This document shows, piece by piece, positions 14,001-64,000 of a stretch of DNA of 64,000 bases (position 1 is its first letter; the number at the start of each line of letters is the position of its first letter). The stretch is from contig OZ037846.1 of the NCBI GenBank assembly GCA_964035575.1, forward strand, positions 124,001 through 188,000. Direction: 5' to 3'. The notes under the pieces are model-generated. The model saw only the letters and a program-made list of their open reading frames with translations. It did no database searches and was not told the DNA's origin. Made by a program: the position numbers and the translations under genes. Origin of the DNA: Rhynchopus sp. YZ270_cl-10. Its lineage: Eukaryota.

Positions 14001-14082
14001 GGGGGCGTCTGCCGTGACGTGAGCACCCCCCCCCCCTTTTTGGGGCCATATTCTGAGCAAGAATTACCCCTACTAGTTATCA
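11077..14082 (+). mobile_element. 5'-truncated non-LTR retrotransposon inserted in a (CA)n tract
   Basis: Starts mid-RT (NGIMQGCPLS...SFVDD) directly after (AC)n and ends ...CTAGTTATCAA before (AC)n. Absent from the paralogous site at 19590-19670. Confidence 0.93.
11078..14022 (+). pseudogene. Retroelement polyprotein remnant: RT C-terminal half (frameshift ~11340), zf-RVT-like CCHC finger, RNase H, C-terminal twin Cys/His repeat
   Basis: Motifs QGCPLS/FVDD; CPYC..ETVRHMWWEC; FDGGAR..NNVAEYEG..GDSKLI..HVKRNLNTDADALSN. ORFs 11087-11347 and 11344-14022 are in different frames. Confidence 0.9.
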
Positions 14083-28335: not shown

Positions 28336-31194
28336 ATGCCCGCGTCTTTGTCAGACTTGGTGCAACTCAAGGAGCTATTTGATGCTGGAATACTCTCTGC
28401 TCCTGAGTATGACTCGATGAAGAGCGAGTGTCTGGAGGGGCTGAGGCAGTCATACAGACACGGATTCATGCATGCGCCCGTACCGTCTTATCCTCCCTCT
28501 CAGGCCTCCTTCTACAGTCCCAACGTCCCATCATCGACAATACCACATACGGCAGCACCTACAGCATCATCAACAGCAGCACCTACAGTAGCACGTACAG
28601 CAGCACGTACAGCAGGACGTACAGCAGCACGTACATCATCATCAACAGCAGCACCTACAGCAGCACCTACAGCAGCACCTACAGCATCACCAACATCATC
28701 ACCAACAGCAGCACCTACTCCAACAGCTCCAACAGCACCTGCAGACACCACGTGCCCCCTATTAAGGGCATACCTCCCGGGAACGGAGCACCGCGACCTC
28801 ACTGAGGTTAAAGACCTCCTCACGAAGCATGGATTGGCGAGAGGGTGGGGTGTAAAAACCTCGAGGCGTGAGGGGGGGTACGGCACGTGGGTCTGCACTG
28901 ACCCGGCGTGCAACTGGAAAGCCACCGCAGGTCCCTCAAAGACCGGCGGGGTTAAGGTGAACAAGGTGGGAGTACACACCTGCACCTCCAGTGCCGCCGG
29001 AGCCACCTCCTACGGGACAAGCAAGGTGCTCGCCCAGGAGAACGTCGGCATGTTGTCTGCCATGTCTGCGAACGATGCAAAGATGTCACTGAAGTCGGAC
29101 CTGGGGGTGTCTGTGAGCCGCAGCACCGTCCAGCGCGCGAGGTGTGGCGCCGTGGAGGTCGCGAACGGCTGCATGGACGAGGAGTTCAGCAAATTCGCAG
29201 ATTACCTGAAGCGCCTGAGCGATGCAAACCCCGGCACCTACAGCAGCTACGAGAAGGAGAACAGGGCACCTGAAGGGAGCCCCCCAGTGGAGCACTTCCG
29301 CCGCTCCTTTGTCGCTCTCCCCGAGGCTATCCGGGCGTTCCGCCTCTGCCTCCCCATCGTGTTCCTAGATGGGTGTCATTTGACGGGGCACTATGTGGGC
29401 ATGCTGCTCATTGCTGTGGCGAAAGACGCCAACAGCAACATCGTCCCCTTGGCGGTGACGATGTGCCCGATGGAGGACACCGCCAACTGGGGGTACTTCG
29501 CCACGCACTTCAACCGTGCGTTTGGCCAGCTGCGGGGGGAGACGATCCTGTCCGACAGGCTGAAGGGCTTAGGAACGGAGCTGGATGCTGCGTTTCCGGA
29601 CTGTTGCTGTGTGGCGTGCGTGAAGCACCTGGCGGGGAACATGTCCGGGGGAGCGTCGTCTGTCGGGAAGAGAGATGTGGTGCTGAACGCCACGTTCAGA
29701 TTGGCGAAGGAGAAGACGGTGCAGGGGCTCGCAAGTGCGATTCGTGAGGAGAGCAGTGCGCATTCGCGGCTGAGCACAGCGTTGACAGCTGTGAAGGATA
29801 AGTGGGCTGACTGCCACTTGTCGGGGTACCGTTGCGACGAATACACCCAGAACGCAAGCGAGAGTGTGAACGCTGCGTTGCTGGACGCAAGGGGTAAGGG
29901 CATCATCACCCTGCACGTCACCTGGAGGAGGCTGACGATGACGTGGTTCGCCGAGAGGTCCGCGAAGCTGGCCTCCCTCCCCATTCCCAACGGCCTGTTC
30001 AAAATTGTGAACACCGTGTTCAGGGGACGTGTGCAGGACTCTGTGGAGAAAGCTCGTACGCTGGTGCGCACACCGACGCAAGACGATAACGTTGTTGAGG
30101 TCCTTGCAAACGGAGATCACTTTACTGTCAACACCGTCGAACTCACGTGCACGTGCCGTCGCCCCTCCTTGGAAGGCATCCCCTGCTCCCACCTCATTTG
30201 TGCCTCGGACGATTCCGTCCTCGATTGTGTCGCGCCGTTCCTGAAGGATGAAGCATTGAGGGGCATCTACATCGCAGTGCCCGAAGCGACGACCATGCCG
30301 GAGGACCTCACTGACCTCCACGCTTCCGGCTTGCTTCCGATGATGTGCGACACCAACCCCCGCGGTAGACCGGCACGCATACAATGCAACGGGGATAAGA
30401 AGAAGCAGTGTTCGCGCTGCGGTGGGGTGGGTCACGCTGCGACGTACCGGGGGCAGGTGAGGTGCAAGCGTCCAATACCCGACGAATGGGTGCAGGAGTG
30501 CAGTAGGCGCAAGAGGATGAAGGGGGGCTCAGGGAAACGTGTGCAGGAGGTTTCGAGCGGTGCGCCAGTCGAGGTTTTGGCACATGATGTGCGAGTTCCC
30601 ATCTCGCTTCACGTGGCTTCTGGAGAAGGCAGGGTGGAAGGGGAGTGCGGATGGGCTGCGACGAACTGGATCTTGGACTTCCACAAAGAAGCCAGGGTGC
30701 CATATTCTGTTGCAATGCATGCACAGTCTATGCTACAAACTGTGATGAGTAGTTTTGATGCCGCCGAAACCTGCGAGAACCAGCAGGGGGGGGGTTACTT
30801 CACCTACAATACTGTGAGTAACCTCTGCTTGAGTCGCGGAATTCTCCTGAGGCACTGGGGCAAGGAGAGCTTCGAGGATGGTGAGGGGAAGGATATTGTC
30901 CTGCTCGGCCCCCCACTGGACCTCAGCGACACCCACTGGGTTGTTGCGAAGAAGGTGGACGGGGTGCGTGGATACGTCGTCTGGGACACAGACGCAAAAG
31001 AGCGTCCATTTGCCACTCTTAAGGACGTCAATGCTGAGTACACCCCGCAGTACCAGCCGTTTAGGGTGAATACGCTTCTCTCCCTGAGTGCTGCACTTCT
31101 CCGGCAAGAAGCAAAGCAAAGAAAGGTGTCGCCAAACGGCAAGATGGCGGTAATTGCTAGGCGAATCCGCGCAAAAGCAAATACTCAAATCTGA
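28336..31194 (+). CDS. MULE/MuDR transposase with N-terminal SHOCT-like helix, DDE core, SWIM finger, CCHC knuckle and a C-terminal Cys-protease-like domain (ORF open from 28246)
   Basis: Motifs FLDGCHL, ILSDRLKG, CVKHL, TQNASESVN, CTCRRPSLEGIPCSHL and CSRCGGVGH; uninterrupted ORF. Confidence 0.93.
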   Translation: MPASLSDLVQLKELFDAGILSAPEYDSMKSECLEGLRQSYRHGFMHAPVPSYPPSQASFYSPNVPSSTIPHTAAPTASSTAAPTVARTAARTAGRTAARTSSSTAAPTAAPTAAPTASPTSSPTAAPTPTAPTAPADTTCPLLRAYLPGTEHRDLTEVKDLLTKHGLARGWGVKTSRREGGYGTWVCTDPACNWKATAGPSKTGGVKVNKVGVHTCTSSAAGATSYGTSKVLAQENVGMLSAMSANDAKMSLKSDLGVSVSRSTVQRARCGAVEVANGCMDEEFSKFADYLKRLSDANPGTYSSYEKENRAPEGSPPVEHFRRSFVALPEAIRAFRLCLPIVFLDGCHLTGHYVGMLLIAVAKDANSNIVPLAVTMCPMEDTANWGYFATHFNRAFGQLRGETILSDRLKGLGTELDAAFPDCCCVACVKHLAGNMSGGASSVGKRDVVLNATFRLAKEKTVQGLASAIREESSAHSRLSTALTAVKDKWADCHLSGYRCDEYTQNASESVNAALLDARGKGIITLHVTWRRLTMTWFAERSAKLASLPIPNGLFKIVNTVFRGRVQDSVEKARTLVRTPTQDDNVVEVLANGDHFTVNTVELTCTCRRPSLEGIPCSHLICASDDSVLDCVAPFLKDEALRGIYIAVPEATTMPEDLTDLHASGLLPMMCDTNPRGRPARIQCNGDKKKQCSRCGGVGHAATYRGQVRCKRPIPDEWVQECSRRKRMKGGSGKRVQEVSSGAPVEVLAHDVRVPISLHVASGEGRVEGECGWAATNWILDFHKEARVPYSVAMHAQSMLQTVMSSFDAAETCENQQGGGYFTYNTVSNLCLSRGILLRHWGKESFEDGEGKDIVLLGPPLDLSDTHWVVAKKVDGVRGYVVWDTDAKERPFATLKDVNAEYTPQYQPFRVNTLLSLSAALLRQEAKQRKVSPNGKMAVIARRIRAKANTQI

Positions 31195-37266: not shown

Positions 37267-38556
37267 TCACACGGTGCTGTTGCGCTTCATGGATTTGTAC
37301 AAAATGTCCTCGAGGCCACTGGGCGAGACAGCCCCCTCCACTTTGTAGGTCTCTACATTCGCCGCCACCCAAGCGGGCGAATTGTAGTCCTGCACGGAAA
37401 TGCCGCCGGTGAAGGTGATATCCGTACACGGGCGGTCAGCGAAGCATATCAGGGACCCAGCCTGGTCGACGTAGTCCGCTGTGACGTGCTCGTACGTGAT
37501 ATTTGTGATATCCGTCAGCGGCGTGCCCGCAACGAGGGTCCCTTCGTAAGGGTATGTCGTGTCAATCCCGATGATGACCTTAGCGTGAAGCAAGGTGTTG
37601 TCCTTGAAATGCACGTTTTTCACGTATGCGCCACGTGTCGCAGCGGTTTTGATGTGCAGGCCATGAGACAACGTGCCTTCCTTCTTGTCAATACTGTTGT
37701 TGTACACGAAGATGTCCGAAATGCCCCCAGACACCTCCGACCCAAGAGAGATGCCGTGTCCGTGGATGAAGGTGTTGTGCTGGACGGTGATGTTCTGTGA
37801 GGGCATGCCATACGCGAGACCAGCCTCGTTGATGCCAGACTTGATTGCGATGAAGTCGTCTCCACAGTCGATGGTGCAGTGCTCAATAAGCACATTCTGT
37901 GCAGAGTCGGGGTCAATACCGTCAGTGTTTGGACTATCCGCAGGCGCATAGATGTTAACGTCATGCACCCAGATGTTCTTACTGTACACAAAATGAAGGG
38001 TCCAGAAGGGTGAGTTCTCAATCGACACCTCCCGCACCTCGATTCCTTCGCTCCATTGAAATTCAACAAGGTGAGGCCGTCCTGCAGCAAGCGTGCCCGC
38101 ATGACCACGTGTCCACCAGTATGAGCCACTTCCATCGATTGTTCCCCCTCCAGAGATGGTGATGTTTGTCTGGTTGAGCCCCCAGAGGATGGGTTGGTGG
38201 CGTGCGTAGACGGGGGCTAGTGTGTCGCGTGAGGTGCCGTAGGAAGGGAGTGGCGCGACGATAGGGAAGAGGGAGGTGTCGGCAGCTCCGCGCAGTGTTG
38301 CGCCGTGCTCCACTACAAGGTTGATGTTGCTCGTGAGGTTGACTGCCCCGATGACGTATGTGTCCGGTTTTTGGTTCAGGTAAGGTACAATGACATTGCC
38401 GCCGCCTGCAGAAGAGACCGTGTGCAGGGCCTGCAGCAGTGCTGCGGTGCAGAGTGTCGCGTTGTCTCCTACAGCACCTAGGTCTGTGATGCGTACATCG
38501 AGTGCGCCCACGTAGGCGCAGAGCGTAGCGAGCGTGAACAGACGCATGGTTGGCAT
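37267..38556 (-). CDS. Secreted glycoside hydrolase family 28 (polygalacturonase-like), intronless, ~429 aa
   Basis: Signal peptide MRLFTLATLCAYVGA; GH28 motifs SPNTDG, GDD, GHG and HIK (at the RIK position); also GAVGD and GGGTIDGSG. Confidence 0.93.
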   Translation of the reverse strand: MPTMRLFTLATLCAYVGALDVRITDLGAVGDNATLCTAALLQALHTVSSAGGGNVIVPYLNQKPDTYVIGAVNLTSNINLVVEHGATLRGAADTSLFPIVAPLPSYGTSRDTLAPVYARHQPILWGLNQTNITISGGGTIDGSGSYWWTRGHAGTLAAGRPHLVEFQWSEGIEVREVSIENSPFWTLHFVYSKNIWVHDVNIYAPADSPNTDGIDPDSAQNVLIEHCTIDCGDDFIAIKSGINEAGLAYGMPSQNITVQHNTFIHGHGISLGSEVSGGISDIFVYNNSIDKKEGTLSHGLHIKTAATRGAYVKNVHFKDNTLLHAKVIIGIDTTYPYEGTLVAGTPLTDITNITYEHVTADYVDQAGSLICFADRPCTDITFTGGISVQDYNSPAWVAANVETYKVEGAVSPSGLEDILYKSMKRNSTV

Positions 38557-43487: not shown

Positions 43488-44337
43488 GGAAAATTTGAAA
43501 GATAAAAAATGCCACCTGATACAATTGAAGAAACCACAAAGGTGGAAATACAATGTAAGGTGGCAGTGTGAGTTCTAGATTAGGGGATTTTCATTGTGTT
43601 TGCAAAAAAAAAGAGGCTACCAATTGACACGCAATCAATCACTCAACTAACTATCCTCGTTTTTCGGTGGATAATAGCCTATAGTACTTTGTGGAAAATC
43701 CGGAGGGGAAGAAAGGGGGAAAAAAAGCTATTTTTTTCTTGAAAATAAGGAAAAGAAAAGTTCTTTTTATTGTTATTTGCCTTCTTGGAAGAAAAAAAGG
43801 GAAGGAAAGTGTTTTTTTTTTTTTTTTGAAAACTTCGTTGTATTGGTGTAGCCACCCTAGAGTGTGCTCCGCTATACTAAACACGTTTTTTTTTTACCTC
43901 CCCAACCTCTGGCCTTGGGGGAAGGGGGGGTTTTTTTTGACAACAATAACAACACACAAAAAAAAAACAGGTTGTTTTGTGCACACACAACTCTACTATC
44001 ACATTTTTTTTTTTTTTTTTGCGACAACTACGAAAAAAAGAAACTAAAAATAACCAAAATTGACAAATTCACATTTTTTTTTTATACTCTAATCTTTTAG
44101 CAGGAAATATCCCACTATAACAACTACAAAGGGAGGGGTACATTCTTTTTTAATGCAATGATGAATACTTAAGCCCCATCGCTTTTTGGGCACCCCAAAA
44201 AAAGGAAAATAAATTGTTTTCGTAAGATAAAACTTCGCATTAACACCTCTCATCCTCTCTTACGTCACCTAAAGAAACAACTCATTTTTTTTGTTTGAAA
44301 CCCCCAAATAATTCTTCCCAAAAAAAAAAATTACCTT

Positions 44338-47300
44338 TTATTTCTGGTCGAAATTCATACTATCAATGGGGTTTCCTACTGGACGGATCAGGGTCGGGTC
44401 AACCCCATCTGTGTACGTTCCATCCACCCATTGGATTAAAACCGAACCATCTGTGTTTGCATTCCGCACGGTCCCCATACTCCAGGCTCCGTTCCAAAAG
44501 ACGTCTACGGTTTGCCCAACGAGGTGGTGGTTTGGGCTGGCCACATCCTCATCAATGACCGGGACTACCCCATGACGTTTGTGGTCCAATCTGAGCTCTG
44601 GAGATGTCAGCCCTTTTGTGGCGGACCCATCCTCCCACCGCACGTCGTAGGTCCCATTCGCTGCGTTGCGCTCTGTGATCACTGCTGGGTAGAAATCGCT
44701 GTTGTGCCACGCAAGAACGTTGTCGCCAATACAGAATAGGCCTTCAGAGCGTTCGCGGACGTCCGCAGGGTGGACTCCGCGTGTTACCATGCCCTCCTCG
44801 CCCCAGTCTACAGTGTAGGATCCGTCGTCTTCTTGGGAAACAATGCGGGCAGCTGCCCATTCGCCGTTGTAGTTAACGTCTACAGGACAGCCTGGTGGGA
44901 AGCCTGTTGTGGGTGACATATCCATCGGTTGGAGCTCGTCAGAGTCGTGTTTGCTGAAGGCAAACACATCTGGGTCGCTTTTGTTGTTATTGACGTCGTC
45001 CCAGGTTCCGTGAGGAGATGCTGGCTCTTCTTTGTAGCGTGTTTCCTCGTCCTTCTTCCCGCAGCAGCAGCACAGTATAATAATGCAAATGAGGCACAAA
45101 AGGACTGCCCCTGCAATGATAAGCCAGAACCACCATTCATCTGTGATGTTGCTGTTCGAAGAGCCGACTGGGGTTACGGTAGGTGTGGGTGTGGCCTGTG
45201 TGATTTTTGAGGAATTTTTCAAAGATGGGTTGTTTTTTACAAAACGATGAAGAATGAATATGTCTCGGATGCATACGCATCTGACAAAGAAACAAATTTT
45301 GTTATTTGAAACGAAAGAAAACAATCATACCGCAGCCCCAACGAGGGCTTCGTACTTCGACGCGCCAAGCGGCTGCAGCGTGCCGTTGGGTTTGAGCATG
45401 TCTGCCGTGATGAGCCCACTCGCGAGGTTCTTCTTGTTGTTGTCGATGCTCGGTGTGGTGGTATCAATAGGGATGAGGTCGTACTCGATGTACGTCTTCG
45501 AGGAGTTGTCCTGCAGGGCGGCGGCAAAGCGGCCCGCCGTGGTGCTGCGCTTGCAGCCGCCGTTAAGGAAGCGCTGCTCGGTACGTGTGCACACCATCTC
45601 GGGGCACACTGAGTCGGGACACGACCAGAGAAGAGAGGGCACCACAGCGGAGTCCTGTGGTGTTGCGGTGTGTGTACAATTTGTGATTATTATTTTTCCA
45701 GCAAAAACTGAACAACTTATGTTAATGTGATGACTCCAAAGAACAAAAAGGACAGAACAACAGTGTGTATTATTGAAAAATCCCTCTCGTACAGAATACC
45801 TTAGTACGTGGCAGGTCCACCGGGGTGGACCCAACCAGACCCTACTCATCGGTCAGAAAAGACAGTGGAGCTTGCACAGGTGGCAACTCCAATATTCCTA
45901 CAATTTTTCAAAAAAAGTTGGTGAGGTGAACCCAAGCCTTGTGTGTAGTCAAGAGAGACGGGAGAGATGGCATGCATACCTGAATGACCTGCTTCACGCC
46001 TTCCAGGAAGCGGTTTGCGTCGAAGCTCGCGAAAGGTGTGTCGACAATCATTCTGAAGACAGCGTCAATGAGGTTTGTCTCTGCAGGGGCAACAGTTCTG
46101 ATGTTCGACACGATTTCTGAGGTGTGTGTGGGTTGTGGTGTAGCTAAGACAAAAGGGTTGTCAGGCCGCAATGTTGAAGCAACTGTGGGTAATTCCTAAG
46201 GGCAAACCATTGTCCATTGCCCATTGTGTGTGTAGGGGTTGAATGACATACCTGACTTGCCCGAGCCGTAGTCGATCTTGGGGTCGATAGTTGTGCCCGT
46301 GGCCACCTGGTAGGCCTCAGCCAGCTTCGGGAAGGTGTGCTTCTTGCTGGTAAAGGCGCTGTTCATTGCTTGCAGCACAGCGCTTTCATTGGACAGACCC
46401 AACACGTTCAGGGTGTGCTGCACTAAGGCTCCCTCCGCCTGTTGTGGTGTTTTTGAATTTTAATTATCTACACAAACATCTCATAGCTGACACACTGCAT
46501 CACGGAGTCTGTTGCAGAACTCAACGAACACAAGCAGACCTCACGCTTCTTATCAGAATAAGGAGGAAGGCTCAATGAGTCTAATATGCAGCAGAACAAC
46601 CACCATTGGGGCAACATTATAAAACAAAAACAAAGACACCATACCGGCGCGACAGCGTCCACCATACGTGCAGTCACCCTCGACGGATGCACCTCGTACT
46701 GCGCAGCGAGGTCGTACCTTGCCGCCTCTGCCAACACCGTCTTCTGTGTGTCGGTCACCTTCGAGAGGTCCACGTTGGTCACGGCAGCCACCATCGAGGA
46801 CACGAAGGGGCGCAGGTTCGTCACCACTGCGGACTTTTCGACGTCGACGTTGGCGTCTACGTTCTCTCCTGTCAGCGATGCGTAGGCCGCCTCGGTCCTG
46901 GGGAGTGTGATGGTGCGCTCTAGATAGGCCTTTTGGATGTTGGCGAGGAGGAGCTCGGGTTGGACGAGGTTCTCGGTGTTGACGCTGTAGAAGAAGACGC
47001 TGCCGTTGGAGCTAGCGTGGTCCATGATCTGCAGCGAGATGCGCGAGGTCGAGGTGCCAAAGGCCCCTGCCAGGTCTTGCGTCGCAGCCACCGTGAGTGC
47101 ATTGATGTTTGCCTGCGTCATGCCCACAATCGAGATGTTCTGCACCACCAGATACGCCACCTCCGGCACCACGACTGGAGGTGCCGGACCGGTTGGCGTA
47201 GGTGTGGTCCCAGGTGGAGACCGTGTCAACGGAGGCTGCACAATCGTGCTCCCGGAGGTGTACCGCACAACACGAGAGTTCTTCGCTTGGACAGGACGTG

Positions 47301-50300
47301 AGTTTCCAAACAGAGGTTTGTCCAGAACCTGGACACCACGCGCCTCAGCGGCTTTGATCATGTCGTCAGCGCCGATTGCGGTGCGCAGCTGGTCGTACTG
47401 CGTGGTGCTCATGACCTGCGGGGTGGAGTAAATGTAGCGCTTCACGCCTTCCTCGCATGGTGGTGCCGAGTGCGATCCGTCATATGCGAAGAGTGCACGG
47501 TCAGTGGGAAGTACCTGAGACAAATCCAACACAGTGAGGAACGACGCAGAGGCTCTCGCTGTGATTGGTTCAAACGGGTTTTCAAAATGCTTTTCCGGAG
47601 AAATCGGGGGCAGCGGAAGCTTGTCAAAGAAAGCCTTCAGCCACGAACTTTCACTTTGCGTGCGCACCTGGAAGAAGACGCTCACCACAACGTACTTCGT
47701 ACCAGACAGCGCTGTGGTTCCCTGCGAGACCGCAACCTGGTGGTACAACATCACTTCCATGCTGTACTTTCCTCCCTCGATTGTGTGCTCGCTTGGTGTG
47801 TGGAACTCAATGTGGGACAAAACGTACTTCCGGTTCGATTGGTTGGGGTCTTCGATCCATCCGGGGCTCTGCATGAAGGTCATTTTAAGCTTCGCCATGT
47901 CGTTCTCGATTCTGTAAGTGTTCTCCGTCCCGGTAGCGGAGTAGGTGTACGAAAGGTCCTGGAGGGTGCTGTCGATGAAGGGGACGTCCAAGGCAATGGG
48001 CGACTGCTCCTGCCCAGCGCAGGTCGGGTACATTTGTGTTGTGCTCTTCGAATCCTGCAGGCTTGCCCACAGGGTTGGTCCACGGTTGTTGACTTCAGCA
48101 TAGTGCCATGGATGCACCGCACCCACACCGCACGTTGCCGAGGCCGTTTGGATCGGTGAATCTGTTGCTCCCGTTATCTTTCCCATCGGAGGGACACCTC
48201 CGGTACTCTTCATTCGTACCTGACGCGCTTTGAGGGGTTGTGCAGGACGGACGTTGCCGACCTGCGTGCAGGGGAGAATGTTGACACCAGCCTTGGCAGC
48301 TTCGCTCGCTTCTTGGCCGAGACCCAGCGCATTGCGCAACTCAGATACCTGCGACTCGGAGATACGCTGCGGGTTGGAGTACACGTACCACCTCTTCCCT
48401 TCTGTGCACGGTGGAGCCGTCTCTGACCCTTCGTAGGTGAAGTACTCTTTGCTAGCGGGAAGTGCGTTGGCGATGTCCAAGGTGCGTTCGAGAACCTGCT
48501 TGTTGTTTTGGAAGAGCTGGTAAGGGTTACCATAGAGAGATTCCTGCGAGACAGGGTCGCTCGGCATGCTCCCCCAGAAGGCGTCGATCCATTCGTTCTT
48601 GGTGTCCCCCTGGGATTCGAAGAAAACAGAAATCCCAACAAATTCAGGTCCCACAGCAGACCCCGGCTGTCCGGTCGCCTTTTTATGAGAAATCTGCATT
48701 TCCGCATCAAAATGCCTCCCCCCTACAGTATGCTCGCTTGGCGCTTTGAAAGTAATACCGGTTACCTCATACCGGGTGTCGCCATTGTTAGGGTCTTGCA
48801 TAGCTCCCATGGAGCCTGCTTTGAACTCAAGATGAACAGAAGCCTGGTTGTTTACTACAGTGTACGTCGCGCCTTGGCTGTATTTATAGACTAAAGCCTT
48901 GAGTGCGTTGTCCACAACCGCCTCTTCCATGTTGGCAGGGCTTTGTTGAGTTCCGGTGTTGCAGGTAGGGTAGAGGGGTGCGCCTGCAGGGGCGGTGACG
49001 GTACTCCATTGGGAAGGCCCTCTGCTGTTTGCTTCCGTGTAGAGCCAGGGCTGTTGGGTGGCAGGTTCCTCGCAGGTTCCTGAGGTGGAGATGGCAGACC
49101 ATCCACCGGTTTTGGTTGCGCCAGACACAATGCCAGTGGGGGCGACACCTGCGTCGCTGCTCATCTTGATTGTTCTGGTGTTCAAAGGTTGGGTCGGGCG
49201 GTTGTTGCCAAAGGTTGTGCAGGGTTTCGGGTGGTACCCCTTCTTCGCAGCCTCCGTCAATTCTCCAGTCAAATTGAGGGATTGGCGATAATTATTCAGT
49301 TGTGTTTGACTAATTCCGACCGGAGTGGTGTAGACGTACCACTTCACACCTTCTGTGCATGGAGGCTCTGTGAAGGAGCCGTCATAAGTGAAATACTCTC
49401 TCGATGAAGGAAGTGAGGCATGCACATTGAGCGGTACTTCGATGACAGTTGAGGAGCGTTTGTGGAACCCTGCGTAAGGGGTTTGGTGCGCGAACTCTGC
49501 CGTCAGAGGGGTGGTCTGGAGGAAGGCCCAGAAGGATTCCAGCCATGGGTTGTCCAGCGCCGTCACTTCAAACAGAACTGTTACCACCAAATCACGGTAC
49601 TTCGAAAACCCCTCGACCCCTTGCGGCTGCACAGCGGGGCCAGACTCTCTGTGCACAATGTGCATCTCCATGTCATAGAGACCGCCGTTCACAGAGTGTT
49701 CACTGGGGCTGTGGAAGTGGAGGTTGTGCAGATCGTAGCGCTTCATGCCTAGGTTAGGATCGGTGATGTGCCCGTTGGTTCCGTCTGTGTTTTCGAAGGA
49801 AACTCTGCCGTTCTTTTGGTTGTTTTCGACGACGTAACCGACCTGCTGGGGGTATGTGTATTCCAACGCCTTTAACGTTTCGTCGAGCTGTGCAGCCGAG
49901 ATGTCAACAGGGGATTGCTCCTTCGAGTTGCCTGCAGCGCAGTCAGGGTAGAGGGGTGCCGCTCCTACGGTCTCGGTCATGGCACCCCAGCTGGTTGGTC
50001 CGCGGTTGTCACCTTCGGTGTACAGCCACGGCAGTACTGAGCACCGTTCGTCGTCAAAATGCACGGAGGTGACCGGACCGCTTGCTTCCTTCGCGACGGT
50101 GCCGCTCTTCTTCAAGACTCTGGTGTTGACCGGCTGCACCGGACGGTTGTTGCCAAAGGTGGAGCATTTGCTAGGGGAGAACCCCATGCCCTTCGCGGTG
50201 GTCAGCTCCTCTTCGAAGCCCATGAGTTCCCTGAAGAGTGCCAGCTGCTTGCGGCCGACCTCGAGAGGCGTGGTGTAGACGTACCACTGCACACCTTCCG

Positions 50301-53300
50301 TGCAGGGTGGTACCGTGATGCTGCCGGCGTAGGTGATGAACTCCGATGCGGGTGGGATCAGTTCTTGTGCGGAGAAGGTGGTCTGCACTTCGGCAGTCTG
50401 GCTCGTGAAGGATTGCCATGCGGAGGTGTACAGCGTGCTTGGCTGCAGCGGGGTGGGTCGCATGTGCTGAAAGAACTTCTCAAGAACCGGGTTGTCCGCC
50501 TCGCGAACCTGAAACAGCACCGCAACGGAGACCCGCTTCACTTCGTCGTGAATGTTCGCGTTTGCTGGCTGGCCGATTGCCTCGCGGTGATGGAATTGGA
50601 CCTCCATATCGTACAGACCCCCTTCAATCGCATGCTCCGAAGGTGCGTGGAACTCTATGTGGTTCAACTCAAACCTCTTCGACCCGAGGTTCGGATCCTG
50701 TACGTATCCTAACGACCTCGCGTCGGTGCAGGCAATGGGGGAGGGTGTCCTGTCTGGCGGTTCTGCCTGCGCATTGGCAGACCGCTTGGTGGTGGTTCCA
50801 GTGTGCCAAGGGGCGGCCCGCACGGTGATGACCTGAGACCGCTGGTTGTTCTCGACGTTCATCTCGCAGATGGTGTTGTAGCTGAAGACGAGGGGTTGGA
50901 GGTTGAGGTCCGTCACCATGTGTGTAGCGTTCATATTCAGCGGCGACTGCTGCTCCCCTGCCGTGCAGGTAGGGAACAGCGCCGCACCACCCCCTTGCGA
51001 GGTCAGCGTCCCCCAGTTCTCCGGGCCCCTCTGGGCGACGTCGGCGTACCCCCAGGGCTGGTAGCCGGTGCCTCCTGCACCACAGTCTCCTTGCCCACCA
51101 CCTTGGCTGACGTCAACCAGCTGGACCACATCCGAGGTGCTAGTTGTGATGGTCGTCCCAGCAGGAATGTTCGCCGGAGGGGGCTCTGTGGCGCCCTGCA
51201 CTGCTCCTTCATGCGCAACACCGGATTTGCTGTACATACTCACAGTTCTCCCATTCGCAACCTGCACAGGACGGTTGTTCCCATAGGTCTCGCAGGTGGC
51301 TGCGGTGAATTGGTTTTTCTTGGCCTCGGAAAGCTCGTCGTTGAACCCCATTTTGCTTTTAAACTGCGCTAGCTGCCCTGCACTGATCCCTGACGGCGTC
51401 GTGTACACATACCACTGTACCCCCTCTGTACACGGCGGGGCAGTCTTCGACCCCGTGTAAGAAAAGAAGTCCTGCACCTTGGGGAGGCCTCCGGTAAGGT
51501 CTACGGCTGGGCTAATAGGGCCGCTGATGCGTGGTTCGATACTGTCCTGTGGGTTTGCGAAGAGCGTGGAGGGGGTGACGGGGAGGTTCTGAAGGGAGCC
51601 CCAGAAGGCAGAGAGGAAGATGTTGTCGGTAGCCTCGGTCTCGAAGAGAACCGACACATGAAGCCATTTTGTGGAGGCAAACGACTGAGCCGAGGTCGGC
51701 TGCGAGCCATCCGCTTCGTGAACCATGATCAACTCCAGCTGCCTCAACCCTGTCCCCACCGCATGCTGCGACGGTGCGTGCAACTGAAACTCCACCAAAT
51801 TGAACTTCATATTCCCCATATTCGGATTCGTGATATACCCTGGGGACGTCGTGAATACCACCTTCATCATGTTTTGCCAATTCTGCACAGTGAACTCTCT
51901 TCCCTGCACGTAGGAGTACACCAACGGCACTAGCGTCTCATCAATTCGCGCCTTATCAATGCGAACAGGAGACTGAGAGACACCCGAGCCGCAGGTAGGG
52001 AACAAAAGCGTGTTGGTGGTAGGGCTTTTGATGGCGCCCCATGAGGTAGGTCCGCGGTTGAGGACGTCCGCGTACAGCCAGGTCTGGTCTTTGCAGTCGA
52101 CATCCGTCTGATGCGCGGAAAACACCTTTCCAGGAGTGTTCGCTGCCGCCTCCGTTCTCTTCACAACACGCGTCCCCAGGGGTTGGATCGGACGGTTGTT
52201 CCCAAACGTCGCGCACCTCTGAGGGATGAACCCCTTCTCCTGCGCCACCTTCAACTCCCCGGTGTAATTCATTGCCCCTGATATCGCCGCAATCTGTGTC
52301 AAGGACATCGTATTGGCGGTGGTGAAGACGTACCACCTCGCCTTCTCCGTGCACGGCGGCTGTGTCAACGAGCCATCATACGTATAGTACCCTCTGTCTG
52401 CCGGCAGCCCTTTCGCAAGACTGAGAGGTTCCGAAAGACCGGTCCGTTTTGTCGCCTGAAACTCACCATACGGGGAGGTGTACTGTTCGTCGAGGCTTCT
52501 TGGGCGTTGTTGGAGTTGTCCCCAAAGATCTTTGAGGAATTCATGATCAGGTCCATCAGCCTTGAACAACACCGCAACACCAAGGTATTTTGAGTCCGCA
52601 GAAACACCACTAACCTGCCCTGTGGAGTCGCGGTGCATCAGCTGCATTTCCATTTCGTAGTGGCCTCCTTCGATGGAATGTTCGGACGGCGTTCTGAAGA
52701 CGACGTGCGTTAATTCATAACGTTTTTGGGTGTTTGTATCAACGACGTACCCAGCAGGGGTGGCGAAGGTTACGAAAATGGCGGCGCCGTCGTTTTGAAT
52801 GGTGTAGCCCGTTGCAGTGCCATATTGGAAGTCGAGCGGGGCGAGGGTTTTGTCGACGACAGACGCGCCGGTGGAGAGGCTGATGGGGCTTTGTTCTGCG
52901 CCTCCACAGGAAGGGTAGAGGGGGATGCCAGAGTTCTGTGCTGCGACGGTGGACCAGCGGGCAGGGCCACGCTCGCTCACCTCAGCGTAGAGCCATGGCT
53001 GTTGGAGGATGTCGTCGCAGGTTTGTTTGGTTGCAACAATCGAGGTGTCCGTCGCTCCTACTACCGACCCCACCTCGGCAATGCCCGACACAGAGTACAT
53101 GCGCACAACACGGCCGTTGAGGGCTTGAACCGGACGGTTGTTCCCAAACACCTCGCAGTTGTCAATCGGAAACCCAAAAGAGGCTGCCACTGCTGCTTCC
53201 TCGACGAGCCCCAGCTTCTCCCTCAACAACGCAACCTGCGCCGCCGTGGTCGATATTGTGTGCGCGTAGACGTACCACTTCACGCTCTGCGCGCACCCAT

Positions 53301-54027
53301 CAATAGGAGACGTGAACGATCCGTCATACGTAAAATACTCTCTTTCCTTCGACGACTGCCTAATAGTACTCCAAGGAACCGGCAGGATCGAGGTCATATC
53401 GAGAGGGGTCACTCCGGTGTTCGAGGTTTCCGTAAATTCGCTGAAGTCCGTTGAATAGAGGTTCGCGGCAGAGATCGGCACCGACGGAATCTTATCAAGA
53501 AACGACGTGAAGAAGGTATGCTCCACAGAGGACTTTGTGTTCACAAGAATCGCGGTGATGAGCGTCACAAACTGAGGATACGCAGACGCAGCATCGGGTT
53601 GCCCTGTTGCCGACGCTGTATGGACAAGCTGCAATTCTACGTCAGAAAGACCTTCTTCGACCGAATGCTCGGCAGGTGCATGGATGTCGATATATTTCAA
53701 ATCGAATTTCTTCCCTCCCAGGTTGAAGTCACTAAGCGAGCCAGCATCAGAAGTAAACTCAATGCGTACGAACGCACGCAAATGCCTTACGGTGTAGTCC
53801 GAGGTCGTCACATAGGCGTACAGCAACGGCAGCAGGGTGTCGTCAATCACAGCCTCCTCAATCTGAATCGGCGACTGCTGGTTCCCCGCGCAGTCGCCGT
53901 ACAGGACGTCCCCAGTGTTCGTGTGGCGCATGGTCCCCCACTGTGCAGGGCCACGGTTCGAGACGGTACTATACAACCACGGCTGTGTAATGCCCATAGC
54001 GGCCGCAGCAAGCAGATGAAGAAGCAT
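44338..54027 (-). CDS. Giant type I membrane protein, ~2,984 aa: signal peptide, 7 alpha-carbonic anhydrase domains, stalk, TM, 3 Tudor/agenet-like repeats; exons 54027-46645, 46438-46252, 46182-45980, 45654-45331, 45195-44338
   Basis: Seven copies of W.Y...RGP..W / QSP / SEH / Y.GS.T.PPC.E.V.W / N.RP.Q. Four GTATG..CAG introns join the exons in frame (8955 nt). TM WWFWLIIAGAVLLCLICIIIL is followed by CCCC. Confidence 0.9.
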
Positions 54028-54415
54028 TTTATACAATAAATAAAACTTTGAAGAAAGGTGTGTGTGGAGGAGGAGGGGGGGGGAAAGCAGTGCTGCCCCT
54101 CCTGTCTGTGTGGGGGGAAATTGGATGATGGGGGTGTTTTTGCGTATCGACGAACTGTAGCACGACAACGAAAACTGGGAATACGAACAGCAAAAAAAAG
54201 TGAAAATAGAACTTTTTTTTCTTCATGGGTTGGGAACGCGCATGACATGTTTTGAAGTGGCTGTCCGCTAAAGGGAGCAGAGAGCAAGATAGAGAGGGGG
54301 TCAACCAGATAAAAGATAAAACAAAAAAAAGTTTTGCGTTCCTCGTGTTCTTGTCGTTGTCCCTTTCCAGGTTGTGAGGTGAGTGGTGGGTGCGATAGCG
54401 GACAGGCGCAATACC

Positions 54416-56668
54416 TTATTGCGCAAAGACTCCCCTACGGTGCTCGAGGAGAACCTGCACCACACCTGCATGTCCTTTCACCCTCGCATAATCCCTTGCA
54501 GTGTGGCCCAACAAATTTCTGTGGTTCACATCCACCTCTGGCAAGCCCACAAGATAGCGCACAGTCTCGGTGTGTCCATGACAAGCCGCAACGCTGAGGC
54601 ATCTGTCACTCTTGCCATCCACCGCACACACGTCCGCACCTGCTTCGACCAACATCTGCACAATTTCAGGATTTCCCACCATACAAGCACGGTGAAGAGG
54701 CGAACGTCCATTGTCGTTCTTTGCTTCGACGTCTGCCCCCGCATCAATGAGCACCTTCACCACATCTGAGTGGTTCTCAAACACTGCGCGGTGCAGTGAA
54801 GTGTAGCCCCTGTTATTTAAGTGATTCATGTCCACTTCTGGCAAGCCCACAAGATAGCGCACAGTCTCGGTGTGTCCCTCATATGATGCACACATAAGAC
54901 ACGTATATCCCTTGTTGTCTGTGGCACGCACTTCTGCACCTGCTTTCACCAACAGCTTCACAACGTCGAGTCCTCTCGAAAGGTGCAGAGGCGAACTTCC
55001 CGTGTCATCATCCTTTGCCTCGATGTCTGCCCCTGCATCAATGAGCACCTCCATCACATCTGCATGATTGTGATTAGCTGCGCAGTGCAACGCAGTGAGG
55101 CCTTTGTTATTCTTGCGATTCACGTCCACCTGTGGCAAACCCACAAGATAGCGCACAGTCTCGGTGTGTCCACGATAGGTCGCAAAGATAAGACATGTGG
55201 TTCCTTCGTTGCTTGTGGCACGTACTCCTGCACCTGCTTTCACCAACATCTTCACAATCTGGAGATTCGCACTGCTTGCCACGAGGAGTGGCGAACGTCC
55301 ATCGTTGCCCTTTCGCTCAATATCTGCCCCCGCATCAATGAGCACCTCCACCACATCTGCATGCTTTTTACGTACTGCAGAGAACAACGCAGAGCGGCCG
55401 TCGTCAGATATGTGATTCACGTCCACATCCTTCAAGCCCACAAGATAGCGCACAGTCTCGGTGTGTCCCTCATATGATGCACACATAAGACACGTATATC
55501 CCTTGTTGTCTGTGGCACGCACTTCTGCACCTGCTTTCACCAACAGCTTCGCAACGTCGAGTCCTCTCGAAAGGTGCAGAGGCGAACTTCCCGTGTCATC
55601 ATCCTTTGCCTCGATGTCTGCCCCTGCATCAATGAGCACCTCCATCGCATCTGCCTGGTTGTGATTAGCTGCGCAGTGCAACGCAGTGAGGCCTTTGTTA
55701 TTCTTGTGATTCACGTCCACCTGTGGCAAGCCCACAAGATAGCGCACAGTCTCGGTGTGTCCACGATAGGTCGCAAAGATAAGACATGTGTTTCCTTCGT
55801 TGCTTGTGGCACGTACTCCTGCACCTGCTTTCACCAACATTTTCACAATCTGGAGATTCGCACTGCTTGCCACGAGGAGCGAACGTCCATCGTCGCCCTT
55901 TCGCTCAATATCTGCCCCTGCATCAATGAGCACCTTCACCACATCTGCATGCTCTTGACGTACTGCAGAGACCAACGCAGAGCGGCCGTCGTCAGATATG
56001 TGATTCACGTCCACATCCTTCAAGCCCACAAGATAGCGCACAGTCTCGGTGTGTCCATGGTGTGACGCACACATAAGACACGTATATCCCTCGTTGTCTG
56101 TGGCACGCACTTCTGCACTTGCTTTCACCAACAGCTTCACAACGTCGAGTGCTCCTGAACGGCAAGCCCAGTGCAGAGGCGAACGTCCCATATCATCCTT
56201 TGTTTCGATGTCTGCCCCTACATCACTGAGCACCTGACACACTGCAGGGTCCGCCCACATGGCTGGACAGGCACGCCCTTCTAAATCCTCCTGCCCGTGT
56301 GGGACCATCGCCACGTTGCTGCAGACTGACTTCCAATACTGCAAGAGGACCTCCGTGCACATCCACGCAGTGTGGTCTGCGTGGACGCACTCACTCAGCA
56401 AGATCCCGAAGGCCATCTGCGTTGTCTCAACATACGGAAGAAGCAGTGCGAGGCATTCATCGTGGTTCCCTCTGCATGCCTCGTGCACAGCATCGAATGA
56501 CACTGTTTTGCTGTCTGTGTCTGGGCTGAGCTTCTCAAGTCCCGCCCGCACAGCAGTCATGTCCCCCTTCTTGGAAGCCTCCACCAAGACCTCGTCTGCA
56601 GAAATCTTTGTACTCTTTGGTGGGTTCTCGTCCAATGCAGTGTCCACAGCCACGTGTCGCTTCGACAT
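54416..56668 (-). CDS. Ankyrin-repeat protein, 750 aa, with a near-identical internal ~591-nt block duplication
   Basis: Many GRSPLH.A / GHTETVRYLV / LIDAGAD repeats; intact ORF. Confidence 0.95.
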   Translation of the reverse strand: MSKRHVAVDTALDENPPKSTKISADEVLVEASKKGDMTAVRAGLEKLSPDTDSKTVSFDAVHEACRGNHDECLALLLPYVETTQMAFGILLSECVHADHTAWMCTEVLLQYWKSVCSNVAMVPHGQEDLEGRACPAMWADPAVCQVLSDVGADIETKDDMGRSPLHWACRSGALDVVKLLVKASAEVRATDNEGYTCLMCASHHGHTETVRYLVGLKDVDVNHISDDGRSALVSAVRQEHADVVKVLIDAGADIERKGDDGRSLLVASSANLQIVKMLVKAGAGVRATSNEGNTCLIFATYRGHTETVRYLVGLPQVDVNHKNNKGLTALHCAANHNQADAMEVLIDAGADIEAKDDDTGSSPLHLSRGLDVAKLLVKAGAEVRATDNKGYTCLMCASYEGHTETVRYLVGLKDVDVNHISDDGRSALFSAVRKKHADVVEVLIDAGADIERKGNDGRSPLLVASSANLQIVKMLVKAGAGVRATSNEGTTCLIFATYRGHTETVRYLVGLPQVDVNRKNNKGLTALHCAANHNHADVMEVLIDAGADIEAKDDDTGSSPLHLSRGLDVVKLLVKAGAEVRATDNKGYTCLMCASYEGHTETVRYLVGLPEVDMNHLNNRGYTSLHRAVFENHSDVVKVLIDAGADVEAKNDNGRSPLHRACMVGNPEIVQMLVEAGADVCAVDGKSDRCLSVAACHGHTETVRYLVGLPEVDVNHRNLLGHTARDYARVKGHAGVVQVLLEHRRGVFAQ

Positions 56669-60593: not shown

Positions 60594-62045
60594 CTAAAAG
60601 ACTTCCCTACGGTGCTCGAGGAGAACCTGCACCACATCTGCATGTTGTTCCACCCTCGCACGGTCCAATGCAGTGTGGCCCAACAAATTTCTGTGGTTCA
60701 CGTCCACCTCTGGCAAGCCCACAAGATAGCGCACAGTCTCGGTGTGTCCATAACGAGCCGCAACGCTGAGGCATCTGTCACTCTTGTCATCCATCTCACA
60801 TACGTCCGCACCTGCTTCGACCAACATCTGCACAATTTCAGGATTTCCCACCATACAAGCACGGTGAAGAGGCGCACATCCATTGTCGGTCTTTGCTTCG
60901 ACGTCTGCCCCCGCATCAATGAGCACCTTCACCACATCTGAGTGCTTCCGTAACACTGCGCGGTGCAATGAAGTGTATCCCTTGTTACTTGAGTGATTCA
61001 TGTCCACTTCTGGCAAGCCCACAAGATAGCGCACAGTTTCGGCTTCTCCACGAGCTGATGCACCCGCAAGACACGTGCTTCCATTGTCGTCTGTGACACG
61101 CACTTCTGCACCTGCTTTCACCAACAGCTTCACAACGTCGAGTCCTCTTGAAAGGTGCAGAACTGAACTTCCCGTGGCATCATCCTTTGCCTCGATGTCT
61201 GCCCCTGCATCAATGAGCACCTCCACCACAGCTGCATGGTTGTTATTAGCTGCGCAGTGCAACGCAGTGAGGCTTTTGTTATTCTTGTGATTCACGTCCA
61301 CCTGTGGCAAGCCCACAAGATAGCGCATCGTCTCGGTGTGTCCACGATAGGTCGCAAAGAAAAGACATGTGTTTCCTTCGTTGCTTGTGGCACGTACTCC
61401 TGCACCTGCTTTCACCAGCATCTTCACAATCTGGAGATTCGCACTGCTTGCCACGAGGAGTGGCGAACGTCCATCGTTGCCCTTTCGCTCAATATCTGCC
61501 CCTGCATCAATGAGCACCTCCACCACATCTGCATGCTTGTTACGTACTGCAGAGAACAACGCAGAGCGGCCGTCGTCAGATATGTGATTCACGTCCACAT
61601 CCTTCAAGCCCACAAGATAGCGCACAGTCTCGGCTTCTCCACGAGATGATGCACACATAAGACACGTGCGTCCATTGTTGTCTGTGACACGCACCCCTGC
61701 ACCTGCTTTCACCAACAGCTTCACAACGTCAAGTGCTCCTGAACGGCAAGCCCAGTGCAGAGGCGAACGTCCCATGCTGTCCTTTGCTTCGATGTCTGCC
61801 CCTGCATCAATGAGCACCTGACACACTGCAGGGTCTGCCCACATGGCTGGACAGGCACGCCCTTCTGTATCCTCCTGCCCGTGTGGGACCATCGCCACGT
61901 TGCTGCAGACTGACTTCCAATGCTGCAAGAGAGTCATGTCCCTCTTCTTGGAAGCCTCCACCAAGACCTCGTCTGCAGAAATCTTTGTACTCTTTGGTGG
62001 GTTCTCGTCCAATGTAGTGTCCACATCCACGTGTCGCTTCGACAT
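60594..62045 (-). CDS. Ankyrin-repeat protein paralogue, 483 aa (in-frame N-terminal deletion, fewer repeats)
   Basis: Shares its N- and C-termini with 54416..56668; ORF intact. Confidence 0.92.
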   Translation of the reverse strand: MSKRHVDVDTTLDENPPKSTKISADEVLVEASKKRDMTLLQHWKSVCSNVAMVPHGQEDTEGRACPAMWADPAVCQVLIDAGADIEAKDSMGRSPLHWACRSGALDVVKLLVKAGAGVRVTDNNGRTCLMCASSRGEAETVRYLVGLKDVDVNHISDDGRSALFSAVRNKHADVVEVLIDAGADIERKGNDGRSPLLVASSANLQIVKMLVKAGAGVRATSNEGNTCLFFATYRGHTETMRYLVGLPQVDVNHKNNKSLTALHCAANNNHAAVVEVLIDAGADIEAKDDATGSSVLHLSRGLDVVKLLVKAGAEVRVTDDNGSTCLAGASARGEAETVRYLVGLPEVDMNHSSNKGYTSLHRAVLRKHSDVVKVLIDAGADVEAKTDNGCAPLHRACMVGNPEIVQMLVEAGADVCEMDDKSDRCLSVAARYGHTETVRYLVGLPEVDVNHRNLLGHTALDRARVEQHADVVQVLLEHRREVF

Positions 62046-63019: not shown

Positions 63020-64000
63020 TCAACACACAAGCCGATAGACGTCGTGGCTCCCTTTGTGCGGGACCAGCACATCCCCGAGGGAGGTGGTGACGTGCCCCTC
63101 TGGTGGTGCGAAGAGACACACATTGCCACAGCGCACAGCCTCCTCGCAGAGCGTCCAGGAGCGGCGCACGCAGCGGCCGACGACGGTCACGAAGCGTTGG
63201 CTGCGTGCTCCGACGTCGCCGTGCTGCACGACCCCGCTGACGAGACCTGCGCCGTTGACAACGCAGGAGGCGTTCATGAGACGCGAGACAAAGCGCACCG
63301 CCGCTTCTGTGTGCGCTGGCGCAGAGCGTGTCACGTTCCACCCAACGCAGACGTAGCTGCCCAGGAGCGTGACCACCACACCACCGCTCTGATCCAAGGC
63401 TACTGTCAGTGTGGTCAGCGCAACGCTCATGTTGTGCAGCGCAACGGGGCTCTGCTCGTCGCCAACAGACAGCTCTGTGACACCAACCGTGGCGGAGACC
63501 AGGCGTGCCGACCCAGCGATGATCCTGCTTGCCTCGCCAGCCAGATCGCTGCGCTCTGTGGCGCGGGAACGGAGTGAGCTCGCAAGAGAGTCGCAGCATG
63601 TGTCGTCTGGGGCAGCGCGTCCTGTGGTTGGGTCGCGGAGGAAGACGTGCTTGCGTCCTGCAAGTGACTTAGCCCATATGTTCGAGACAAACGTGTTTCC
63701 AGACACACCCTTCAAATCAAGAGCCGCAGTATCACCAACTATGCCGTTGCAACCATTGCATTCAGAAGACCACAATGCAGAGCAAATCGCCACAGCGCCA
63801 GGTGAGCAAATGGTTTCAAGGCGTGATGCGACGTTGACAGTGTGTCCGAAGTAGTCCATGCGTCCAGTGAGTGTGTTCAGCTCCGCAGTGACAGGCCCTG
63901 TGTTGATCCCAATGCGGACAGTGAGGCCACACCACAGCAAGCCCTGCTTAGCGCAGATCGGTGCGTCCTCCATAAGAGACGGCGGCCACTCCGCCTCGCG
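63020..64000 (-). CDS. Class III adenylate/guanylate cyclase, C-terminal part; a degenerate cyclase-like domain follows; 5' part lies outside the window
   Basis: GLTVRIGINTGP...GRMDYFGHTVNVASRLE...LKGV resembles euglenozoan receptor-type cyclases. Confidence 0.88.
   Translation of the reverse strand, partial: REAEWPPSLMEDAPICAKQGLLWCGLTVRIGINTGPVTAELNTLTGRMDYFGHTVNVASRLETICSPGAVAICSALWSSECNGCNGIVGDTAALDLKGVSGNTFVSNIWAKSLAGRKHVFLRDPTTGRAAPDDTCCDSLASSLRSRATERSDLAGEASRIIAGSARLVSATVGVTELSVGDEQSPVALHNMSVALTTLTVALDQSGGVVVTLLGSYVCVGWNVTRSAPAHTEAAVRFVSRLMNASCVVNGAGLVSGVVQHGDVGARSQRFVTVVGRCVRRSWTLCEEAVRCGNVCLFAPPEGHVTTSLGDVLVPHKGSHDVYRLVC

Follow-up and report, generated by a model that had tools for sequence, protein, structure and literature searches.

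A diplonemid gene for a predicted membrane protein with seven alpha-carbonic anhydrase domains, one complete zinc site and a Tudor-fold tail

We analyzed a 64,000-nucleotide stretch of the genome of Rhynchopus sp. YZ270_cl-10 (contig OZ037846.1, positions 124,001 to 188,000; the whole stretch is called the window here), which encodes on its minus strand a protein with seven tandem alpha-carbonic anhydrase (CA) domains. The gene is real and transcribed, and diplonemid relatives share its architecture. The zinc-binding histidine triad is missing from six of the seven CA domains, and this pattern is position specific and kept across species; it is the main feature of the protein and was absent from an earlier prediction made from the sequence (the original prediction). 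In order, the protein consists of a predicted signal peptide, the seven alpha-CA domains, a Pro/Thr linker, a stalk, a transmembrane (TM) helix, a Cys cluster and three Tudor-fold repeats. This order and the receptor-like topology had been proposed in the original prediction, and both are backed by a spliced contig of public run X4 and by two full-length orthologues.

Pfam searches of the exons returned seven Carb_anhydrase stretches (759 bits) and, in the last exon, Tudor_3 (31.5 bits, cutoff 25.8) and Agenet (27.9 bits, cutoff 27). The CA and Tudor domains foreseen by the original prediction were recovered above cutoff; SEA, a domain that it had named for a Pfam check, had no match. No FNIII or phosphatase domain was matched by Pfam in the exons or in the full-length orthologues P0003 and P0004.

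Residues are numbered as in human CA II; motif positions were checked against bacterial CA structures. The zinc triad His/His/His (HHH in one-letter code) occurs in domain 5 only, in all four proteins of the family (the window protein, P0002, P0003 and P0004). At the same three positions, domains 1, 2, 3, 4, 6 and 7 of the window protein carry DHQ, VRQ, QHI, EHQ, TKQ and EHM, and none of them is HHH in any orthologue. Two of the altered sites are themselves invariant, the Asp/His/Gln of domain 1 and the Glu/His/Gln of domain 4 each being found in 4/4 proteins. Domain 5 keeps His94, His96, His119, Glu106, Glu117, Thr199, Trp209 and Asn244 in all four proteins and is without the His64 proton shuttle, position 64 being Lys/Arg/Arg/Arg across them. 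It also has Glu at 200 and Phe at 198, the latter as in CA III. The alpha-CA fold was modelled for this domain alone among the seven, with a predicted local distance difference test (pLDDT) score of 94.9 and a match to 6im0 at Z 29.8 and a root-mean-square deviation (rmsd) of 1.5 over 222 residues; its closest solved structures are bacterial alpha-CAs. We predict from its residues that domain 5 is a slow enzyme, because CA III, with Lys64, has low activity (PMC9961601) and Dunaliella dCAII lacks His64 yet is active (PMC9570166).

We compared invariance at 16 pocket positions in each domain with that domain's own background by Fisher tests. Invariance was highest in domain 5 (14/16, p=0.0005), followed by domain 4 (12/16, p=0.024 uncorrected), domain 1 (10/16, p=0.022 uncorrected) and domain 2 (9/16, p=0.16). 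With 14, 12 and 10 of 16 positions invariant as against 3/16, 3/16 and 4/16 in domains 3, 6 and 7, the pockets of domains 5, 4 and 1 are apparently under selection and the others are not. Domain 4, which is 58-64% identical to its orthologues, has further invariant residues in His at 92 and 121 and Arg at 64; domain 7 is the least conserved CA domain (41-48% identity). By analogy, domains 1 and 4 could conceivably have weak activity or bind metal, since Gln119 variants of CA II still bind zinc, and reportedly retain some activity, and since the zinc ligands of the Plasmodium eta-CA are His/His/Gln. Zinc binding by those CA II variants is weaker (PMC10175565).

A search of 6,174 candidates yielded six proteins of similar length: the exon-1 open reading frame (ORF) of the window, P0002, P0003, P0004 and two unrelated arrays. 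Identity to the window protein is 55% for P0002, 46% for P0003 and 45% for P0004. P0003 is a Flectonema neradi transcript labelled as a complete ORF; both it and P0004 have the full architecture, including stalk, TM helix and Tudor tail. The alignment of P0002 ends at about the position of intron 1, and it is probably an unspliced first exon. All four proteins have seven CA domains, and the N-terminal domain is not hypervariable. A metagenome scan added one relative among 289 pattern matches, a fragment (L001) with 27% identity.

In a FastTree phylogeny of 103 domains (the 28 of the family and those of 30 proteins picked by hand from 166; rooted at the midpoint), the domains group by position: for every one of the seven, the copies from the four proteins make a separate clade, with support of 0.987-1.0. 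The division of labour among the domains should therefore be older than the split of these proteins. The family domains fall in a clade with single-domain diplonemid CAs (support 0.971); as one clade of their own, all 28 have a support of only 0.187. The best single-domain relatives are proteins of 345-441 aa with a signal, a CA domain, a TM helix and a short tail, and six of the ten that were looked up come from named diplonemids (Flectonema, Rhynchopus, Lacrimia and Diplonema); by homology, then, the window belongs to a diplonemid. These relatives make up a TM-anchored diplonemid alpha-CA family in their own right (P0022, P0028, P0031-P0034, P0036, P0041, P0043, P0048 and P0055), and several single-domain diplonemid CAs are without the full zinc triad, with EHQ, IRQ, VHQ or VHH in its place.

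The predicted cytoplasmic tail is 241 aa long and is filled by three Tudor repeats. The original prediction had called them Tudor-like, and the Tudor fold is borne out by Pfam (Tudor_3/Agenet), by Atlas and by a model of the P0004 tail, in which three barrels superpose on PHF20 Tudor2 with rmsd 1.1-1.2 over 50 residues. The best Foldseek matches of the tail are tandem Agenet domains, and its top Atlas matches are Tudor_3/Agenet at 0.91-0.92, with a low recognition value. Among the individual repeats, Tudor 1 reaches a VIA Z of ~8 to several Tudor/PWWP domains, Tudor 2 matches PHF20 Tudor2 with a phmmer E of 0.008, and Tudor 3 is modelled at pLDDT 71-84. Conservation along the protein peaks in Tudor 1, at 78-80% identity versus 41-60% for the CA domains in the same two comparisons (with P0003 and P0004); Tudor 2 is at 50% and Tudor 3 at 62-63%. 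By alignment, the aromatic cage looks near-complete in Tudor 2 of the window protein but not of P0003 or P0004, and in Tudor 1 and 3 two Trp/Tyr and an acidic residue are kept while the second cage Tyr is absent; reading of methyl marks by the repeats is accordingly no more than conceivable. Together with the acidic character of the repeats, the conservation of Tudor 1 suggests a conserved basic cytoplasmic partner. The tail was seen on no other protein among 1,446 candidates of 500-2,000 aa, and among 1,623 candidates of 1,659-5,280 aa it was seen on P0003 and P0004 only; both searches were word-based, so that distant relatives would be missed, and proteins below 500 aa lay outside their range. 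The searches made turned up no other secretory-pathway membrane protein that ends in the cytoplasm with a Tudor module.

The features of a type I membrane protein are a clear TM helix with a basic flank and a signal peptide judged by eye; a short hydrophobic N terminus is likewise present in 3/3 orthologues. There is one strong hydrophobic helix (aa 2702-2720, Kyte-Doolittle [KD] hydropathy 3.34; next best 1.65). The TM/Cys segment is 52-59% identical in 2/2 full-length orthologues and helical in the model, and the Cys cluster may be palmitoylated. The predicted ectodomain has 12 N-glycosylation sequons and a stalk in which repeats A and B, of ~105 aa each, are related (hhalign probability 95.6, E 1e-8); a hidden Markov model of repeat A scored B units at 17.5-36.7 bits, versus a maximum of 12.1 in 900 shuffles. 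Stalk unit C is unrelated to either. Repeat B aligns to the membrane-proximal domain of SorCS2 (957-1058; Z 6.7, rmsd 3.9, 93 residues) in a part of the model with pLDDT ~50-60, and an Atlas SEA cluster for the stalk, at rank 10 with a score of 0.76, is a weak lead. The stalk/tail model was built from an alignment with misplaced exon fragments and has a mean pLDDT of 48.8, low outside the TM helix and the Tudor repeats. A and B are possibly ferredoxin-like or SEA-like.

The region is present in five public runs from two studies, none recorded as RNA, of which X1-X4 were compared with the window. A single 6,783-nt contig of X4 (record 26), running from 51431 to 43847, skips exactly four introns and spans CA domains 4 through 7, the stalk, the TM helix and the tail, into the 3' untranslated region; this one contig, from one run of unrecorded library type, carries the support for splicing. 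The original prediction had joined a long ORF to downstream ORFs through four GTATG..CAG introns; the four skipped by the contig begin with GTATG and end in CAG, are all of the GT-AG type and have donors at 46644, 46251, 45979 and 45330. The same contig continues past 46400 and holds 45195-44338 in the same transcript, and so contradicts both outcomes that had been named beforehand as evidence against the gene, a transcript ending before 46400 and a separate one for the last exon. Contigs of X1-X3 have no intron joints and read through the introns, like DNA. Because 16 donor/acceptor combinations keep the frame open, the gene model cannot be fixed by sequence alone; the contig chooses acceptor 46117, which gives a spliced protein of 2,962 aa in place of the ~2,984 aa first proposed, a length that fits other acceptors. 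Acceptors 46183, 46144, 46081, 46418, 45609 and 45281 also leave open frames, but the X4 contig uses others. The long ORF, previously given as 2566 aa, has 2,519 aa from the ATG or 2,584 aa from stop to stop, and only its first 2,461 codons are exon.

A second X4 contig (28) covers 51451-54106; between it and the first, 19 nt of exon 1 are missing, and no single contig spans the mRNA from end to end. The second contig places the mRNA 5' end ~79 nt upstream of the ATG, stops aligning at 54106 and continues with 22 letters that are absent from the window. At that point lies a C-rich tract ending in CACAG, resembling the four intron acceptors. Leader trans-splicing, the rule in euglenozoans, is likely at 54106, and the 22 letters may then be the spliced leader. 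Intron 3 also holds a short high-copy dispersed repeat (~45857-45917) at which summed depth is very high and loose ends are numerous in X1-X4; no second copy lies within the window. Coordinates are collected in Table 1.

Table 1. Features of the seven-domain CA gene and its predicted protein, in window coordinates (X4 contig, spliced contigs of run X4)
Feature	Position	Strand	Basis or remark
Gene, whole	54027 (ATG) to 44338 (end of stop)	minus	ORF plus spliced X4 contig
Exons 1-5	54027-46645, 46438-46252, 46116-45980, 45654-45331, 45195-44338	minus	X4 contig
Intron 1, 206 nt	46439..46644	minus	X4 joint
Intron 2, 135 nt	46117..46251	minus	X4 joint
Intron 3, 325 nt	45655..45979	minus	X4 joint
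Intron 4, 135 nt	45196..45330	minus	X4 joint
Likely trans-splice acceptor, C-rich tract ending CACAG	54106..54130	minus	X4 contig 28 end, acceptor-like context
Predicted signal peptide, aa 1-14	53986..54027	minus	Short hydrophobic N terminus, KD 1.21, judged by eye
CA domain 1, aa 16-311	53095..53982	minus	Zinc positions Asp/His/Gln
CA domain 2, aa 344-625	52153..52998	minus	Val/Arg/Gln, predicted metal-free
CA domain 3, aa 649-932	51232..52083	minus	Gln/His/Ile, eroded pocket
CA domain 4, aa 991-1308	50104..51057	minus	Glu/His/Gln, two-Cys insert
CA domain 5, aa 1333-1623	49159..50031	minus	His1437/His1439/His1456, only complete zinc site
CA domain 6, aa 1660-1940	48208..49050	minus	Thr/Lys/Gln, eroded pocket
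CA domain 7, aa 1973-2257	47257..48111	minus	Glu/His/Met, eroded pocket
Pro/Thr-rich linker, aa 2258-2288	47164..47256	minus	Sequence
Stalk repeats A (aa 2289-2392) and B (aa 2405-2512)	46286..47163	minus	Related pair, hhalign
Stalk unit C, aa 2530-2672	45346..46099	minus	Four conserved Cys
Predicted TM helix and cytoplasmic-face Cys cluster, then basic residues, aa 2698-2724	45064..45135	minus	Hydropathy, conservation
Tudor-fold repeat 1, aa 2776-2826	44749..44901	minus	Agenet stretch
Tudor-fold repeat 2, aa 2829-2882	44581..44742	minus	Tudor_3 stretch
Tudor-fold repeat 3, aa 2892-2950	44377..44553	minus	Conservation, model

The neighbouring genes in the window suggest no functional link to the CA gene. 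Two minus-strand ORFs encode ankyrin repeats (54416-56668, 750 aa; 60594-62045, 483 aa), the first of which ends ~390 nt upstream of the CA gene ATG on the same strand. Also on the minus strand are a partial adenylate/guanylate cyclase domain ORF at 63020-63973 (E 2e-11), probably one exon of a longer gene, and a glycoside hydrolase family 28 (pectinase-like) gene at 37267-38556 (E 3e-47). The plus strand has mobile-element ORFs of RNase H/RVT_3-like (11371-14022, 883 aa) and MULE transposase (28246-31194, 982 aa) type. A high-copy short repeat lies at 43791-43890, just beyond the point where the transcript contig ends 3'; it recurs at ~36632, 39618, 58419, 60340 and 62973.

The original prediction had implied that a many-domain membrane alpha-CA was unique. 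Arrays of 4-15 alpha-CA domains are in fact present in other database proteins, many with a C-terminal hydrophobic anchor, and an array of four has been published (PMC7423979). When the 150 best matches to domain 5 were taken from 1.84 billion representatives, a ranking that favours multi-domain proteins, 22 had at least four CA cores by our own profile: two from this family and 20 others. Among 166 proteins, 51 have at least three cores, and 22 of those have a TM segment after the last core. In 19 of these 22 (several being near-identical pairs) the tail is at most 84 aa; the three with tails of 227-241 aa all belong to this family, and these alone match the Tudor profile (3/166). The tree places six other arrays in clades separate from the window protein's family, P0016 and P0029 being sisters. 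By this placement, six or more independent origins of long alpha-CA arrays are represented in the sampled proteins, and Gln frequently stands at the third zinc position.

The arrays themselves are diverse. P0005 has 15 cores, none of them HHH, with a signal and a C-terminal TM segment; P0013 has 8 cores, all HHH; P0009 combines ~10 cores with PAN domains; and P0020 is a very long alpha-CA array. No description of these four was found in the searches made. Six cores are present in P0017/P0164 (Pseudoscourfieldia marina, Pycnococcus provasolii) and in P0014. P0166/P0038, of 5,981 aa and labelled Hpha, which we take to denote the diplonemid Hemistasia phaeocysticola, has five cores (VRQ, HHH, RHQ, HHH, AHQ) and is hydrophobic at its C terminus; its domains make up a clade separate from the window family, so that this is a second CA array in the same group. 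We found no paper on the window protein or on a CA array with a Tudor tail in a literature search in which most subscription papers and supplements were out of reach, and a genome-paper table may list it. The diplonemid paper that deals with carbonic anhydrase treats mitochondrial gamma-CAs (PMC12699882), and PMC5177918 was set aside, its subject being beta-CA counts.

How might such a protein work? We favour, at a probability of about 0.4, a surface receptor that links local CO2, bicarbonate or ion conditions to a partner inside the cell by means of one enzyme and two ligand pockets. The protein would be secreted and anchored as type I, with the CA array outside the cell or in a lumen. Domain 5, with Lys/Arg for the His64 shuttle and Phe198, would bind zinc and act as a slow hydratase, equilibrating local CO2, bicarbonate and H+; domains 1 and 4 would take up bicarbonate, some other anion or a metal ion and catalyse little or nothing, the behaviour proposed for the RPTP-gamma CA-like domain; and domains 2, 3, 6 and 7 and the stalk would serve mainly as spacers or contact surfaces. 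Ligand-dependent clustering or a change of shape could then be relayed by the TM helix and the Cys cluster to the acidic Tudor repeats, which would bind the conserved basic partner in the cytoplasm. Output would depend on this partner, because the protein has no catalytic signalling domain, and the conservation of Tudor 1 relative to the CA domains points to a fixed one. A more specific form of the idea, which we regard as doubtful, is an inorganic-carbon sensor made of one enzyme and its own dead copies, in which domain 5 equilibrates, domains 1 and 4 read the products and the Tudor module signals, possibly being cleaved off to bind methylated or basic targets. If true, this would be a convergent counterpart of animal RPTP-gamma, in which Tudor domains provide a cell-surface receptor's output.

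Several observations weigh against a receptor. The p-values for domains 1 and 4 fail correction for seven tests, some of the 16 pocket positions are structural, and the four proteins are non-independent, being related in pairs (P0003 and P0004 are 78% identical). Many unrelated arrays whose tails are too short for signalling (P0005, P0029, P0050), and single-domain diplonemid CAs as well, also have Gln at 119, which may be a way in which such sites commonly decay. A sensor of CO2/HCO3-, it is argued in PMC9961601, should not interconvert its own ligand, as domain 5 probably does. No Tudor repeat has, by alignment, a complete aromatic cage in all three proteins (window, P0003, P0004), and a conserved tail is equally compatible with a plain anchor. 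Such an anchor is central to a reading that we rank close behind the receptor and hold only tentatively, in which domain 5 is the sole working part of an ecto-enzyme for pH buffering or transporter feeding, the dead domains and stalk are a spacer, and the tail only fastens the protein to some structure of the cell cortex or the flagellar pocket. The best-kept pocket is indeed that of domain 5, the array derives from single-domain TM-anchored diplonemid CAs, the tail has no signalling enzyme, and the other arrays (tails of at most 84 aa in 19/19 of those whose last core is followed by a TM segment) are presumably ordinary ecto-enzymes or coat proteins. However, this does not account for two invariant non-canonical pockets, those of domains 1 and 4, or for the cross-species retention of position-specific identities, and diplonemids already possess single-domain HHH membrane CAs (P0033, P0034, P0036).

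Adhesion or recognition, in which surface loops of the CA folds would bind a protein or glycan of prey, of a substrate or of another cell, with the tail tied to the cytoskeleton and domain 5 activity secondary, seems to us rather unlikely. A large multi-repeat ectodomain with a stalk and N-glycosylation sequons is the usual build of an adhesion protein; yet conservation here sits in the pockets and Tudor 1. Many prey-recognition arrays have a hypervariable N-terminal domain and variable copy number, unlike this family with its seven copies in 4/4 proteins. Contactin binding by a beta-hairpin that lies outside the pocket, as in the CA-like domains of RPTP-gamma and RPTP-zeta (PMC11215419), would be a precedent for such a role. 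We consider it improbable that the protein belongs to the lumen of an acidic or mineral-forming vesicle, where the carboxylate pockets of domains 1 and 4 would bind divalent cations and the tail direct trafficking. The topology fits a lumen as well as the cell surface, domains 1 and 4 have Asp/Glu in place of His, and accumulation of membrane-bound Sr/Ba crystals is reported for one diplonemid (review PMC12746419); those minerals, however, are sulfates and not carbonates, nothing ties them to this gene, and the homology searches made brought up no orthologue from that species.

Whichever reading holds, one apparently active and six altered CA domains in a chain offer an internally controlled test of whether CO2, bicarbonate or metal is bound by dead CA pockets, a question raised by the CA-related proteins and RPTP-gamma; the domains have a common scaffold, and each can be expressed singly. 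Diplonemids are abundant, little-studied marine protists (PMC12699882). What is unusual is the Tudor tail together with the one-active/six-altered pattern; the parts have precedents, and the combination was found nowhere else in our searches. Tandem alpha-CA domains in one chain are known from Dunaliella dCAI (two; PMC9570166), giant clam DDCA (two; PMC5879104) and Pyropia alphaCA15 (four; PMC7423979), the first two being extracellular or membrane-associated as well. These are described as carbon-uptake enzymes of phototrophs or their hosts, in contrast to the window protein, with 6/7 domains lacking the His triad and a 241-aa tail. The diplonemid lineage is heterotrophic. The database arrays (P0005, P0013, P0017/P0164, P0014, P0166) are likewise long with a C-terminal anchor, and several mix HHH with xHQ/xRQ sites, but they form independent clades with short tails and no Tudor profile match. 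Domain 5 shares Lys/Arg at position 64 with slow CA III (PMC9961601), and the other domains share the absence of zinc His with the CA-related proteins CA VIII, X and XI, all of which, CA III included, are single-domain proteins. The tail has the fold of Tudor/Agenet methyl-lysine readers such as PHF20 Tudor2, 53BP1 and plant AGDP/ADCP1, but its repeats follow the TM helix of a secretory-pathway protein and have no complete cage in all three orthologues.

The closest functional parallel is with the receptor protein tyrosine phosphatases RPTP-gamma and RPTP-zeta (PTPRG/PTPRZ1), type I proteins whose CA-like ectodomain is without zinc His, as are six such domains in the window protein. RPTP-gamma has been proposed as a CO2/HCO3- sensor (PMC11215419, PMC9961601, PMC7541084); its inactive CA-like ectodomain is without two of the three zinc His and has Gln175 (mouse) at one of these positions (PMC11215419), and Gln at one zinc position is found in 5/7 window domains. 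RPTP-gamma was not among the PDB matches listed, and this residue comparison follows the cited papers. The differences are as plain: RPTP-gamma, like RPTP-zeta, has one CA-like domain, FNIII and two phosphatase domains, whereas the window protein has seven CA domains, one intact zinc site and a Tudor tail. Because it is without an FNIII or phosphatase domain, the window protein is not a member of the RPTP-gamma family, and because its CA domains come from the diplonemid CA clade, in a tree without RPTP sequences, the likeness is probably convergent.

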